NCBI GenBank assembly: GCA_050014495.1
Contig: JBEKDF010000003.1
Span: 60,905 to 124,904 of the forward strand
Length of the DNA: 64,000 nt
Origin: Candidatus Bathyarchaeia archaeon
Lineage (GTDB): Archaea > Thermoproteota > Bathyarchaeia > TCS64
Direction: 5' to 3'
The translations under genes were made by a program, and so were the position numbers. Numbering within the stretch: position 1 is the stretch's first letter; each line of letters starts with the position of its first letter. The notes below the pieces were generated by a model. That model had not been told where the DNA came from and searched no databases. It worked only from the letters and a program-made list of their open reading frames with translations. This document shows positions 568 to 6,559 of the stretch, piece after piece.

Positions 568-897
568 CGAGGGATACTTAATGAGTCAGTGTGCGTCTCG
601 TATGGGCCCGAGTGCGTGAGGTAAGTTTTAACCTACGCGCTTAGATTCTAATCAAGCATAATGGTACCATTAATTTTGTTATTTATTTGATATTCATACA
701 GGAGAAGCCACAGGAGCCAGTACCTCCTAAAATCAATTCCTGACTTTGTAGGTAGGTTGGAGAGTGATGTTGCTGACAGGGAGTTCCTGCAAAGCAAGGG
801 GGTGACCCTGCATGACTTTGGCACTGATGGTGAACTACGGTGATGATGACTCTGCTGATGAGTCTGGCATCAATTGAGATGTTGCAGAATGTGTACC

Positions 898-1338
898 GTC
901 ACCACAGGCTAGTACTGTAGTAGCTAACCACACTTTGTCAGGTACACCCATCGACAGTCATCGACACCCATCAGCAGTCACCCACAGCCACCCACCAGCA
1001 ACACCCATTGCAGAGCCATCAACAAAGCCATCGACACCCATTGCAGAGTCATCGACAGCCATTGCAGAGCCATCGACAGTCACTGAAAGCCAGCGAAAGA
1101 AGCCAACAAAGAGGTCAAAGGAAGAGCCACCCGCAGTCATCGACAGTCATGGACAGTCATCGACACCCACCAGCAACAGTCAAAGAAGAGTCACCAGAGG
1201 AATAACAGACTGTCAAGGAAAGTCAGCAGAAGAAGTCATCAATAGTCACCGACAAGTCACCGAAGAAGTCAAAGGAAGACCCAGCGTCACCCATCGTCGC
1301 GCACGCACCAAGAGAGCAAACACCTGTCACCATCAGTG
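898..1338 (+). repeat. Degenerate ~10-11 bp periodic repeat array (CATCGACAGT / CATTGCAGAG-like units)
   Basis: 20 GTCA tetramers lie between 898 and 1329. (G/C)(T/C)CA recurs at exact 10-bp steps at 937-987 and 1136-1166. A 21-bp unit CCATTGCAGAG(C/T)CATC(A/G)ACA(A/G) occurs three times at ~1005-1079. Confidence 0.85.
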
Positions 1339-1858
1339 TGGTCGCTACGAATCTATCAATAAAATGGTACCAATCATAAAATCTGACTTCATGAAACAAG
1401 CACACCAAAACTCACCACGCTTGTCGAAACGATAAGGATCATAAAGGCAAATAACCCGAAGAAGAATGGTACCATTGTCTGAGAGGAGGCGCTGCTTGTA
1501 CCAGTCAGAGATCCCGAAGGTGATCCTGGGACTAAGGCTTCGATTGTTGGAGTTGATCATTATTAAGGAGGAGGCTGAGAAGGCCTGAATCGCGTATAGG
1601 TTGTCTCACATGCCTACTCGGGGATAAACCCGGTCGGCTCAAATACTCTGATTTCAACTGGGACGCCTTATCTTACTTTCTCGACGAGGGCGAGGACCAC
1701 ATCAACCATCGGTTGTACAATATGGCATACAGACCGCAAGCAAAAGTAAATCAAGAATGAAAAACTAAAAGTACCCGAATGACACTCATTTTTTTGGTCT
1801 TGAATTATTAACCTATAATTAAGCTGGTTTAATTAGACATCTTAGCATTTCTAGTTAT

Positions 1859-2581: not shown

Positions 2582-3332
2582 ATAGCTGTTTACTTATCTC
2601 CTCGACGTCAGCGGGTGGATATCCAGAGTAGTACTTGCTGAAGTAGGCGTAGACATCACGCCCTGACTCGAGGTATCTCTTCGCCTTATTGGCCCATTCA
2701 GCTGTCTCTATCCCCCTTTCCACCTCGACAATCCCCCTCTGTCCATTCACGGCTTTTCTGTCTCCTTCGAGGCGAATATAAGCGAAGCTGGCGGTCTCGA
2801 CATTTGCAGCGTCCGACCTGTTTGTCAACGCGAGGGCGACGCCATGGTCTCTGAGTAACTTGTAGGTCTCCTCGGTGAACCAGCGCTTATTCCTGAACTC
2901 GGCGGCGATGAGCCTCTTCTTAGGGATCTTCTCCAACAGGTCGTTGAGGGCAGTGTGAGTGGGCTTTAGGAATGGTGGAAACTGGAGGAGCATTGGCCCC
3001 AACTTCGCCCCGAGAATATCTATGTGACTGAGGAAGACCTCAAGCTTCCCCGAGTCGTAGACGAGGCCGGGGACATGGGTCACTGTCTGTGGGAACTTTA
3101 CAGCGAACCTGAAGTCATCCGGCACCGCGTCCCTCCACGCCTCAACGGTTGAAATGGAGGGTATCCTGTAGAAAGTGGCATCGACCTCGACGGAGTTCAT
3201 CACTTTGGCGTACTCGGTGAGGTACTCAGTGGTCCTTGTCCCCTCTGGGTAGAGCTTACCTACCCAGAACCTGTAGCTCCACCCCATCGTGCCTAGGTAG
3301 GCTACTCGACCCGCTTCTTGAAGAGGAGCCAA
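2532..3332 (-). CDS. DUF72 (YecE-like) TIM-barrel protein
   Basis: YLGTMGWSY..W, VEVDATFYRIP, FRFAVKFP, LGPMLLQFPP, EFRN and YIRLEG motifs. Confidence 0.9.
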   Translation of the reverse strand: MAPLQEAGRVAYLGTMGWSYRFWVGKLYPEGTRTTEYLTEYAKVMNSVEVDATFYRIPSISTVEAWRDAVPDDFRFAVKFPQTVTHVPGLVYDSGKLEVFLSHIDILGAKLGPMLLQFPPFLKPTHTALNDLLEKIPKKRLIAAEFRNKRWFTEETYKLLRDHGVALALTNRSDAANVETASFAYIRLEGDRKAVNGQRGIVEVERGIETAEWANKAKRYLESGRDVYAYFSKYYSGYPPADVEEISKQLFTHPTNAGTLSSKPLP

Positions 3333-4693
3333 TTCTTCTCCCCAGCCTTCCTGAAGCGGACGAGCTCGTAAGGCCCCTTAAGCCGCTCTCCGTGGATGAC
3401 GAGCTCTATCTTCTCCTCCCCCCACTCCTTGGCCTCATAGATGCCTCTGTCCCATATCTTGACAGTTCCGGCGCCGTATTCGCCTTCGGGGATGATTCCT
3501 TCGAAGCCACTGTAGTCTAGAGGGTGATCCTCAACTGCGACTGCAAGGCGCTTGTCCCCTACCTTCTCAGGGGGACCCTTTGGCACCGCCCAACTCTTCA
3601 GAACTCCGTCCCTCTCAAGGCGGAGGTCCCAGTGGAGGTGGCTCGCGTGGTGCTCCTGCACAACGTAGATGTTTTCCTTCAGCTTCGTCGCCTCCCCTAC
3701 GGGCTCGGGGCTCTTTGAGAAGTTCCTTTTCGCGTTGTAGTCTTCGAGGGTCACAGGTCTCACCTGTGATAATGTGCAGTCAAGGGGTTTTTTATCGGTT
3801 CTTAGTCTGATGAAACGCGGGGCACGCAAACGGTTGTCGTCCGTTAGGTTCTGGTAACCCACCTCAGCGATGACCATTGGCTTCAGCCACGTAGAACCAG
3901 AGGGAATGTCGGTTGCTTCGAGCTGCTGCTCCGCCGTCTTATAGGGGCGGAAGGTGGCGAGTAACTCCTGGAGTGACTTATCCGTGAACCCAGTCCCCAC
4001 CCTGCCCACGAATGTGAGTTTATCCCTCTCATATAGCCCCAGCAGCAACGCCCCGAAGCTATAAGCCCTGATCCCCGTCCCCCTCGTGTAGCCGACGACG
4101 ATGCAATCCACCGTCTTGACGCTCTTCACCTTAAGCCAATCCCGGCTCCTCTCCCCGGGGCGGTATGGGCTATCAATCCTCTTCGCCACGACCCCCTCCA
4201 ACCCCTTCGCTACGGCGGCCTTGTAGTAGGCTTCCCCCTCCCCGATGACGTAGCTAGAGACGACGACATGCTTTCCATCCCTAAGCGAATCCCTAAGGAT
4301 TGTCTTCCTTTCGCTAAGTGGCTTACTCGTCAGAGTTATCCCGTCTTTCTCTAAAATGTCGAAGATTACGTAAGTGCAGGGTATCTCGCGAGCCTTATGC
4401 TCTATTTCCCCCTGCTTTGAGGCTTGTAGTCGCTTCGCCACCGCTTGGAAGTCGGGCCTGCCCCCATTCATCACGATTATCTCCCCATCGATAACAACTT
4501 TGGATGCCAACGTGGAGAGCTCTGTGAGTTCGGGGAACTTGCGGGTGATATCGTTGGAGTTCCTGCTCGTGATGCTTAGCGTCTCCCCAATTTGGGCTAT
4601 GGCACGGATGCCGTCCCACTTTACCTCGAAGAGCCACCCCGATCCACTGAAGGGGGCGTCAGTGGGCTCCGCGAGCATCGGCTTGTATTTCAT
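3302..4693 (-). CDS. ligD: LigD-type ATP-dependent DNA ligase fused to a C-terminal 3'-phosphoesterase (PE) domain
   Basis: Ligase motifs EVKWDGIR, IDGEI, FDIL, EGVVAK, WLKVK, VGRVGTGF, then PE motifs YNAKRNF..SPEP, VQEHHASHLHWDLRLE, SWAVPKGP, EDHPLDY. Confidence 0.93.
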   Translation of the reverse strand: MKYKPMLAEPTDAPFSGSGWLFEVKWDGIRAIAQIGETLSITSRNSNDITRKFPELTELSTLASKVVIDGEIIVMNGGRPDFQAVAKRLQASKQGEIEHKAREIPCTYVIFDILEKDGITLTSKPLSERKTILRDSLRDGKHVVVSSYVIGEGEAYYKAAVAKGLEGVVAKRIDSPYRPGERSRDWLKVKSVKTVDCIVVGYTRGTGIRAYSFGALLLGLYERDKLTFVGRVGTGFTDKSLQELLATFRPYKTAEQQLEATDIPSGSTWLKPMVIAEVGYQNLTDDNRLRAPRFIRLRTDKKPLDCTLSQVRPVTLEDYNAKRNFSKSPEPVGEATKLKENIYVVQEHHASHLHWDLRLERDGVLKSWAVPKGPPEKVGDKRLAVAVEDHPLDYSGFEGIIPEGEYGAGTVKIWDRGIYEAKEWGEEKIELVIHGERLKGPYELVRFRKAGEKNWLLFKKRVE

Positions 4694-5487
4694 CTCTTCT
4701 TCATCTGCTGGAGTGTCTCCTCAAGCGCCACCATGAGCTCCTTGACCTCCTCCCTCTTCTCCGGCTTCTCCACTTTGATTATTTCCCCCTTCAACTTCTG
4801 TTTGATGAGCTTCTCCACGTTCTCCCTGTAGGTGTCTTTGTACTCGGTGATGTCGAACTCACCGGTGAGGTTGTCGAGGATCTTAAAGGCGAGTTCAAGC
4901 TCCTTCTTGCCCGGCTGCTTGAGCTCCTTAATATCCTTAACTGTGCCAGGGTCGATGACCTCGTTAGTGTACCTAAGCGTGGTGAGGATGAGAGCCCCCT
5001 TATAGGCATGTATAAGGACTGGGTACTCCTTCGTCCGCATCGTGTAGCGGCCTATCCCCGCCAATCCCTTCTTTTCAAGCGCCGAGTAGAGGAGCCCATA
5101 GGCGTCGCCGCTCTTGTCGGGACCCAGGATGTAGCTACTCTGGAAGTAGAGGGGATCGACCCCGAGATACTGGACGAACTTATCGACCTTTATACGGCGA
5201 TCCGATTCCGGGCGTATCGCGTCGAGTTCCTCCTTTGTAAAGGTGACGAACTCACCCTTCTGCACTTCATAGCCACGGGACACGTCCCCCCACTCAACCA
5301 CCTCGTTATCGTAAGTGCAGACCCTTTGGTATCTGAGGGGGCACCCGTCCCTCTTCCTGAGGAAGTGGAAGCTGTAGCTCTGGTCCCTAATCATGGTGTA
5401 AAGCTTTACGGGCACATTTACAAGCCCAATGCTTATGGTACCGCTCCAGAAGCTCCTCCCCGGCGGAGCCTGTTCCTCTTCGCTCAA
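4690..5487 (-). CDS. ku: Ku protein (NHEJ end-binding)
   Basis: RSFWSGTISIGLVNVPVKLY, RGYE, VDPLYFQSSYIL and EYKDTY motifs; 4-nt overlap with the ligase start. Confidence 0.95.
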   Translation of the reverse strand: MSEEEQAPPGRSFWSGTISIGLVNVPVKLYTMIRDQSYSFHFLRKRDGCPLRYQRVCTYDNEVVEWGDVSRGYEVQKGEFVTFTKEELDAIRPESDRRIKVDKFVQYLGVDPLYFQSSYILGPDKSGDAYGLLYSALEKKGLAGIGRYTMRTKEYPVLIHAYKGALILTTLRYTNEVIDPGTVKDIKELKQPGKKELELAFKILDNLTGEFDITEYKDTYRENVEKLIKQKLKGEIIKVEKPEKREEVKELMVALEETLQQMKKR

Positions 5488-5719
5488 GCCAAATTCCCTG
5501 TTTGAATCTCGGAACCCGCAGCCTTAACCTTTTCACAGTCTCAGTCCAGAAAATACTTGATTTGCCTTAGAAAATCCACTCGTAGTGCGCACAGGTGAGG
5601 AGATCTACGAAATTGGCCTGAAGCTCGCGACGGGAACTACTTAAGTAGCCCCGAATCTCAGCTTCGGAAAGCCTTTCTCCAGATTCTGAGGATTTTAAGG
5701 GAAAGAAGCTCTCAAGAAT

Positions 5720-6559
5720 TCAAGTCTTCTTAGTCTTCCAGAACTCCTTCCAGACGTCAACCCTGTCGAGGACATTATCTATCCTGAGCTTGCTGGGGTC
5801 TAGTCCTTTCAGCTCATCCCATGTGAGAGGGGTTGAGACCGTCGCAGTCGGAGTAGCCCTGAGACTGTAGGGGCATGCCATCGTCCGCCCATGGCCGTTC
5901 TGCGGGTAATCTAGGTAGACAGTACCAGGCCTCTTCTGCGCCTTCTCGGAGGAGACGATTCCCGTCTCTTTAGCGAGCTCAATGCCTAACTTATGGGCGT
6001 AAGCACGGGTTTCGTCAAATGTCTCCTTCCGATCCGTTGGTGCGATAATGTGTAGTCCCCTCTTTCCCGAGGTCTTCACCCATGCCTTGAGCCCCTTCTC
6101 CTTGAGCTTCTCCCTGATCAATCGGGCGACCCTTCCCGCCTCCGCCATCCCCGCTGGGGGTTGCGGGTCAAGGTCGAAGAGAATTATATCTGGGTGATCC
6201 AGCTTATCGATCCTCGCTAGGGGAATGTGTAGTTCAAGAGCTGCGAGGTTGGCTAGCCAGATAAGGGTGTCGAGGTCGTCGCAAACTATGTAATCGAGCT
6301 CTCTACCCGCAGCCTCGGAGTAAGAGTGGTGGAGCTTCACCCAGTCGGGTGTCCCCTGTGGAGCGTCCTTGCCGTAAAAGCCCTGAGTTTCCACCCCATC
6401 CGGATACCGGGTTACGACTAGCGCCCTCTCCTCTAGGAAGGGCAACATCATGGGAGCCACCTTGATGTAGTACTTCACGACATCGAGCTTCCTGACTCCC
6501 ACAACGGGGTAGAGGACCTTCTCCAAGTTCGTGAACTGGACCCTCGTTAGCTTCTCCAT
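5720..6559 (-). CDS. Stand-alone LigD polymerase (archaeo-eukaryotic primase-like) domain
   Basis: TNLEKVLYP, RYPDG, ALELH, FDLDP, KTSGKRGLH, YLDYPQN, CPYSLR and VSTPLTWDEL motifs. Confidence 0.93.
   Translation of the reverse strand: MEKLTRVQFTNLEKVLYPVVGVRKLDVVKYYIKVAPMMLPFLEERALVVTRYPDGVETQGFYGKDAPQGTPDWVKLHHSYSEAAGRELDYIVCDDLDTLIWLANLAALELHIPLARIDKLDHPDIILFDLDPQPPAGMAEAGRVARLIREKLKEKGLKAWVKTSGKRGLHIIAPTDRKETFDETRAYAHKLGIELAKETGIVSSEKAQKRPGTVYLDYPQNGHGRTMACPYSLRATPTATVSTPLTWDELKGLDPSKLRIDNVLDRVDVWKEFWKTKKT

Follow-up and report, generated by a model that had tools for sequence, protein, structure and literature searches.

Why should a short word be written in one direction on one side of a point, and in the opposite direction on the other? 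The question arises in the window analyzed here, i.e., 64,000 nucleotides of Candidatus Bathyarchaeia archaeon DNA (contig JBEKDF010000003.1), in which TGAC starts at positions 741, 774, 803, 813 and 847, and GTCA occurs 20 times from 898 to 1326. A sequence-only reading had taken this polarity flip, together with two nested inverted repeats, for a bipartite inverted architecture, and had suggested a chromosomal locus or, alternatively, a long RNA with pairing arms. All strings it named were found where it had placed them, both inverted-repeat pairs are exact and nested, and the bipartite architecture is real, with arms that co-vary among copies. What bears these arms is a small mobile cassette of an archaeon, with two genes and here in a broken copy; a chromosomal origin or terminus is unlikely. 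We conclude that the observation is real, and that it concerns a relic copy of an undescribed cassette showing an unusual form of a known process.

Anatomy of the window copy

We collected the features of the window copy in Table 1. The insert lacks att sites and has replaced a host gene save for 43 nt. This lost gene is full-length behind the gene at 1–567 in 9 of 11 loci of relatives, which the window matches up to 608–610. In one of the 11, the right neighbour lies within about 190 nt of the left neighbour, and none carries the cassette. The left neighbour (1–567) is a conserved gene of unknown function with a weak C-terminal helix-turn-helix (HTH), present in 17 of 18 genus genomes, and its right neighbour varies among relatives. 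Further along, positions 3302–6559 hold an end-joining set, i.e., a ligase with a LigD phosphoesterase domain, Ku, and a LigD primase-polymerase. Nearby Ku/LigD was rejected as a mark of carriers: Ku occurs in 15 of 18 genus genomes, ORF-A matches in seven.

Table 1 Features of the cassette copy in the window (positions count from the first letter of the window).
Feature	Position	Strand	Remark
Remnant of convergent host gene	568..610	-	last ~43 nt; rest lost at left junction of insert
Junction zone with GC-alternating words (610, 635)	610..640	.	putative scar
Perfect palindrome AATGGTACCATT, repeated site of cassette	660..671	.	clusters flank other copies
AT-rich tract at truncated 5' end of insert	669..697	.	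composition, 90% A+T
ORF-A conserved N-terminal domain, 5'-truncated remnant (PDFVGRLESDVADREFLQSKGV)	697..837	+	profile matches E 4e-12, 1e-13
Left arm, Asp-rich linker codons giving TGAC/TGAT	791..880	+	frameshift ~833-836; in-frame TGA 875-877
Inverted repeat 1 (outer), left half	822..833	+	one listed difference in related strain
Inverted repeat 2 (inner), left half	845..855	+	three listed differences in related strain
Near-palindrome of the sequence-only reading	868..881	.	contains in-frame stop; not conserved
Centre common to all copies (reads EG.P..AST..AN)	881..935	+	dyad axis GG-N4-CC-type word ~890-897
Right arm, ~28 imperfect ~10-nt units (CAGTCATCGA, GAGCCATCGA, CACCCATCGA)	936..1297	+	T-poor; open in ORF-A frame
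Inverted repeat 2, right half	1043..1053	+	one of the 10-11-nt units
GC-alternating junction closing right arm	1298..1306	.	ORF-A C-terminal part missing compared with intact C-termini
Inverted repeat 1, right half (1327-1338), plus insert	1327..1355	+	alignment to C7 copy
Second palindrome copy, imperfect	1363..1374	.	sequence
Third palindrome, contains ORF-B start codon	1465..1476	.	invariant synonymous positions in ORF-B copies
ORF-B pseudogene	1466..1760	+	stop 1586-1588; frameshift before 1623

GCGCGCGC is 24-fold above expectation in non-coding DNA of the genome (348 non-coding versus 66 coding sites). It lies at many junctions of cassette copies, here within 610–640 and 1298–1306. The window copy was probably cut down at such GC-type junctions, and it is a relic. 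AATGGTACCATT covers the ORF-B start codon, and more copies of this palindrome cluster around both genes. The centre aligns across 24 copies with a single 3-nt gap class, has the GG-N4-CC word exactly in 14 of them, and is without codon-position bias. In the right arm, unit spacing is 10 nt in 14 of 35 intervals, and 10 is the top autocorrelation lag in 7 of 10 copies.

Polarity of the oriented words

Polarity is confined to the feature, as opposite words stand outside its edges (GTCA at 585, TGAC at 1384). Perfect TGAC/GTCA splits, i.e., at least three words per side and at least 12 in all, were found in only 13 of 61,108 600-nt windows of the genome, 12 of which are the present locus or its paralog on contig C16. 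Moreover, polarity is kept in homologues: in ten copies, TGAC and GTCA counts were 31 versus 1 in left arms, and GTCA and TGAC counts 71 versus 5 in right arms. The inversion itself hence stands, but its centre had been misplaced at the near-palindrome, since the axis of the family is the GG-N4-CC-type word.

Two inverted repeats of at least 11 nt had probabilities of 0.003, 0.012, 0.03 and 0.062 in 2,000 shuffles keeping 2-, 3-, 4- and 5-mers, respectively, in a test for which the arms were picked post hoc. They thus go beyond 2- and 3-mer shuffles, but not clearly beyond 5-mer shuffles. The two exact repeats are therefore less special than the polarity, and represent a word that both arms share rather than sites of a special kind. 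A closely related strain shows four listed differences from the window in the left repeat arms (830, 846, 849, 855), and at least four within 868–881; the exact strings are therefore not conserved.

Oriented words that invert about a centre beside an AT-rich tract had suggested a chromosomal origin, terminus, translocase-guiding or partition locus. This is highly improbable for a mobile remnant that is multi-copy and patchy (7 of 71 genomes), has pieces on nine contigs, and is missing from the orthologous site in all 11 loci of relatives. The arrays span 0.6 kb and not chromosome arms, the only Cdc6_C match lies on another contig (C29:20256–20522), and GC skew per 10 kb along contig C3, one of 92 contigs in the assembly, shows no switch here.

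The two-gene cassette and its distribution

In ORF-A (697 to about 1300), a conserved N-terminal domain is followed by an Asp-rich stretch, then by a short centre, and finally by repeats of low complexity. We found 12 longer homologues, eight of which (P0269–P0276) have an open N-terminal domain, linker and tail. ORF-B is a small four-helix protein of 80–95 residues (predicted model pLDDT 86) with 207 homologues and 247 clusters at 50% identity; an intact 94-residue copy lies on C16. Pooled pairwise counts near synonymous saturation gave rough dN/dS values of about 0.26 for the ORF-A N-terminal domain (13 sequences), 0.15 for ORF-B (60 sequences) and 0.9 for the centre. The ORF-A N-terminal domain is under purifying selection. 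In ORF-B, all 60 copies selected for Val-Pro have GTA as codon 2 and CCA as codon 3, whereas codons 6–8 vary synonymously.

The ORF-A profile matched 7 of 71 genomes of the family, all within this genus, and ORF-B 9 of 61, the genomes surveyed being incomplete, so that a miss means not found. Within the genome of the window, centre matches at E < 0.1 lie on nine contigs, dispersed and diverged. Two named Bathyarchaeia records carry the start of ORF-B, and DNA matches come mostly from peat metagenomes, so that the host probably lives in peat. Neither ORF has a family in Pfam or PHROGs, and protein-atlas matches for the cassette proteins all stayed below 0.9. Viral contigs held no relatives, named phages none of ORF-A, and plasmids none of ORF-B. 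Fold searches with ORF-B yielded nothing beyond generic helical bundles (best Z 7.7, rmsd 4.2, 86 aligned), those with ORF-A nothing usable (model pLDDT 52), a blank which is no evidence of a new fold. Longer fused ORF-B forms were absent bar one chance read-through. Distant relatives upstream of ORF-B have an N-terminus that weakly resembles an HTH, with matches to Sigma70_r4_2 below the cut-off in 3 of 12 members (best E 0.007), and the HTH-like alignment had no PDB sequence match. No RNA holders are listed for the stretch, which has no bearing on expression, and a promoter and terminator scan, bacterial in type for an archaeal host, remained at chance level.

Integration is best visible in genome G009 (contig C78, locus L170). 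Here, ORF-A and ORF-B make up a unit of 1,373 bp, flanked on either side by a 24-bp direct repeat identical to the end (3') of the RNase P RNA gene. Directly behind the RNA gene, an element encoding a tyrosine integrase (PF00589, E 2e-16) and a restriction-type protein precedes the unit. The C26 copy of the window genome also lies directly 3' of the RNase P RNA gene, as do those of L047 and L041, the latter possibly the same organism as C26. A degenerate att was found upstream of one C7 copy, and degenerate att-like sequences on G000 C26 at 29271 and 38905. Among the 14 genus genomes with the gene, the cassette was found immediately 3' of it only in that of the window, within the stretch covered. 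No terminal repeats were found in 75 metagenome loci, and no tRNA in 59 of 60 loci. As to an IS or MITE, the 948 ORFs in the neighbourhood of 75 ORF-B loci included no recurrent transposase, and the ends of the window copy appear to be deletion junctions. The cassette itself has no replication gene. It presumably moves with a neighbouring integrase, and its layout in G009 fits a cis-mobilizable element as described in PMC5704250. By that definition, the unit could itself have arisen from something larger by decay.

The 3' end of the RNase P RNA gene resembles an integration hotspot, with tandem att copies in G009 (L170 being G009:C78:1–7522), and in about 6 of 14 genomes integrase-like starts or remnants were seen by eye behind it (L156–L169). 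Other settings were noted, where labels such as ribbon-helix-helix, ATPase-like and virus-like were partly assigned by eye. L142 (7030–15738, G048:C24) is an integrated element with integrase, D5-type primase-helicase, ParB-methylase, ORF-B homologue and HATPase gene. L092 (1–15172) is a virus-like run of small genes, among them a PAPS reductase, a DNA methylase and an ORF-B homologue which, like that of L142, is a more distant one; this array is absent from the viral contig scans. In L061, L062, L087, L089 and L091 a lone ORF-B starts at a palindrome-like site and is followed by another after 212–257 nt, possibly a minimal unit. ORF-A is inverted relative to ORF-B in L052 and L117, with palindromes at the joints. 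In L020 (2203–2601, G000 C9) and L006, a ribbon-helix-helix-like gene (PF01402, E 0.04) starts at a TGTA[AT]TACA palindrome. On C9, seven such palindromes cluster around ORF-A pieces, a second pair of a gene with its own site.

Complementarity of the arms copy by copy

The word that fills the arms differs among copies and agrees between the two arms of each, i.e., left/right GATGAC/GTCATC in the window, GGTAG/CTACC in L136, GGTGCAG/CTGCACC in L047 and GAGGGCG/CGCCCTC in L042. L041 and C62 have CCACC on the left and GGTGG on the right, hence a reversed composition with complementarity kept; C26 is of the same type. We compared each left arm with its own right arm and with those of other copies. 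With each of the 18 independent groups among the 24 copies represented once, own arms shared 5.1 inverted 7-mers and arms of different copies 1.8 (p < 5e-5); without G-rich copies p was still 5e-5 or less. Direct and reverse-only controls were flat at k = 6 and 7 (p 0.26–0.95). The complement-only control was weaker yet significant (p 5e-5 to 0.005), therefore composition contributes part of the signal. These tests omit four centre matches with a lost, duplicate or rearranged left arm, as well as matches below 11 bits or with a right arm shorter than 60 nt, and k-mers overlapping five 6-bp palindromes were masked. Host DNA showed no excess within own segments, neither coding (0.86 versus 0.85) nor non-coding (1.03 versus 0.94; 600 samples each).

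The matches are many-to-many, with no single hairpin register, and 5 of 24 copies have no inverted match of at least 8 nt. In a genome-wide scan of 102,773 windows the C37 copy had the top inverted score (26), and the window copy scored 10. As 140 loci reach a score of 8, many of them AT-rich, the single window copy is not unique by score; the family pattern is. Regions upstream of ORF-B in metagenomes scored at least 10 in 11 of 46 cases, compared with 1 of 200 host regions. The second-highest score of the genome belongs to G000 C13:32581, where three tandem TTTCTAACG units face three reverse-complement units about 250 nt off.

Could the reading frame produce the pattern? On this account, Asp codons yield the left TGAC, and stop-free 10-nt repeats permit only GTCA on the right. 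Left-arm TGAC is indeed read as xxT-GAC in 21 of 22 cases (10 copies), and stops number 7 in the ORF frame versus 27 and 38 in the others (14 copies). The right-arm 10-nt unit is read in all three frames, and sense-strand TGA words are therefore barred. The exact repeats moreover fade to P 0.06 under 5-mer shuffles. Coding hence does account for the polarity as first described. However, it predicts that an arm matches that of any copy equally well, and own arms match about three times better; complementarity also holds in the C26/C62/L041 type, where composition is reversed. As a full account, coding alone was largely refuted by the own-arm versus cross-copy comparison and is quite improbable. 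In 13 of 18 copies, stops lie between the N-terminal domain and the right arm, and the arms match nonetheless.

Selection might instead preserve pairing between the arms, either in RNA or while the cassette is a single-stranded DNA intermediate. Duplexes of own arms exceed cross-copy duplexes in stability by about 10 kcal/mol on either strand, mean folding z over 24 copies is -1.4 on the plus and -2.1 on the minus strand, and minus-strand G-U-type mismatches are in excess (36 versus 18). Yet plus-strand G-U pairs are not (14 versus 19), and the enrichment of G-U on the minus strand is equalled by that of other mismatches. Also, the arms lack a single register, the consensus structure for the centre is empty, and the window copy folds at z -0.2 and -1.4. 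We hence regard selection for pairing as unlikely. The long RNA of the sequence-only reading is a weak candidate: there was no Rfam match, folding z was -1.7 and -2.6, sense-strand G-U was not in excess, and pairing registers were many-to-many.

Inverted templated copying as the probable origin of the arms

The reading we prefer, at a probability of roughly 0.55, is that the arms stay reverse-complementary through repeated short inverted templated copying around a fixed centre, with slippage amplifying the units. Polymerase template switching or fold-back repair would copy short patches, inverted, from arm to arm, so that copying rather than selection would make the arms match. Slippage would amplify the 10-nt units, and the ORF-A linker would tolerate almost any sequence. 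Frequent unwinding of the cassette at its centre might, as a guess, be the source of a high local rate.

Several observations suggest such events, beside the own-arm excess, the many-to-many matches, the arms that match in spite of stops, and a word that does not follow the protein. Perfect inverted 9-mers are 7-fold enriched (57 versus 8), whereas one-mismatch forms reach about 2-fold or show no enrichment, which points to recent and exact copying. Words are swapped at colinear units, GTCA to GACA in 10 of 16 between C16 and C7, and [CT]CATC to CTACC in 5 of 9 between L004 and L136, whose left arm carries GGTAG. In the C37 copy, the centre lies on the opposite strand between 34-nt arms that are 88% complementary. 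This is the one clear inverted centre among about 28 centre matches; it is a spacer inversion, which PMC8604942 counts among the outcomes of template switching. On C9, a weaker inverted centre match (E 0.9) is a hint only. In the window, the last 8 nt of the right half of the outer repeat open a 25-nt insert (1331–1355), at a 4-nt junction match. This insert is absent from the homologous stretch of a C7 copy and may be of templated origin.

The related strain differs from the window at 47 of 1,868 letters over 1019–2886 (2.5%), but by at least 13 substitutions and 11 inserted bases within 830–890. Though different, the left arm of this strain again has 8-mers that could pair with the right arm, where their complements stand at 1011 and 1065 and, by eye, at 1017. 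By eye, in the rows listed, its ORF-A frame runs through the flip.

Against templated copying, the divergent patch of the strain could come from a paralog. The arms are 50–500 nt apart, and published cases prefer short spacers: this preference is stated in PMC8604942, and spacers were searched up to 70 bp in PMC5941160, as far as the accessible text of both goes. A pure mutational process leaves the confinement to one gene unexplained, and word swaps at many sites could equally reflect selection for a new binding word. Templated copying is weakened by the length of the spacers, by the small number of events that can be seen directly, and by the lack of a reason for a high rate at this spot. 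Origin-linked template switching has reportedly been observed. It could supply the reason for the rate, and the origin idea could thereby be right for the cassette itself.

Oriented binding sites for a protein of the element, head-to-head around a central site in the gene's own linker, are the most serious alternative, although we consider them only a tentative one. Such an arrangement would be similar to ori-lambda; lineages would shift the word to escape incompatibility, and selection together with conversion would change all sites. The unit spacing of about 10 nt agrees with this, as do the dyad word at an axis without codon bias, the consistent word swaps, the lambda precedent (PMC6022878, from the text available) and the distant relatives upstream of ORF-B with their HTH-like N-terminus, where arms are inverted as well. 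In contrast, the word is uncoupled from the retained N-terminal domain (69 nt, 18 copies; Spearman 0.15, p 0.07), e.g., 87% N-terminal identity goes with a 5-mer cosine of 0.18, and 59% with 0.77. Left-arm positions are not fixed, and the centre is no more conserved (61%) than the N-terminal domain (63%) or the right arm (60%). The cassette lacks a replication gene, ORF-A has no significant link to the HTH-bearing ORF (E 0.31), and an HTH that might read the word is missing from most copies.

The cassette may also be a self-templating diversifier. A targeted process would start from the central dyad, each arm would template the other, and a new 5–8-nt word would spread to dozens of units on both strands. 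We regard this extension as speculative and slightly less likely than binding sites.

Comparison with known systems

Homogenized arms and inverted spacers are products of template switching in the published work as far as covered here (PMC8604942, PMC5941160, PMC8794818). The cassette resembles such repeats in its exact reverse-complement patches, clustered multi-base changes and inverted spacer, all in coding DNA. The own-arm excess was found in the comparison above, and spacer inversion (C37) and the insert at 1331 in few cases. In contrast to the single short repeats with short spacers reported there, the cassette has two low-complexity arms of 100–400 nt that match many-to-many, and the whole repeated word changes per copy.

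Concerted palindromes in coding DNA occur in nematomorph mitochondria (PMC6649704). There, too, both arms lie within a protein-coding gene and evolve in concert. The nematomorph palindromes are perfect colinear hairpins with a mean spacer of 37 bp, lie in conserved protein regions and occur genome-wide, whereas those of the cassette are imperfect, repeat-based and confined to the disordered linker of one mobile gene.

Cis-mobilizable elements (CIMEs) arise from decay and tandem accretion, according to the available text of PMC5704250. Like these, the G009 copy lacks an integrase, lies between two att repeats, and forms a tandem with an integrase-bearing element behind a stable RNA gene, at its 3' end; this copy is the only one with att repeats of that kind. 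Unlike them, the cassette is archaeal, targets the RNase P RNA gene and recurs with the same 1.3-kb layout, and most copies, including that in the window, lack att and sit at unrelated loci.

In phage lambda, too, the origin has its repeats inside a gene of a mobile element (O), in the part that joins two domains. They are four 18-bp iterons, accompanied by an adjacent AT-rich region in the gene and by the partner P (PMC6022878), whereas the cassette has about 28 short units with dyad polarity and no partner that we found, and binding to it is putative.

Significance

In the open literature, taken without supplements, we found neither the cassette nor co-variation of arm words described, nor any archaeal integration at the RNase P RNA gene, and RNase P goes unmentioned in the accessible part of PMC10848311. 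Known concerted evolution of inverted repeats concerns perfect hairpins. Here, the whole repeated word changes on both sides, copy by copy, within a gene. The roughly two dozen independent outcomes form a natural series to separate templated mutation from binding-site selection. If the self-templating diversifier were true, each lineage would rewrite its linker, or switch the specificity of its own origin, in few steps. For the Bathyarchaeia, whose record of mobile elements is thin, the finding contributes a small cassette that had gone undescribed and a further integration target, the RNase P RNA gene.
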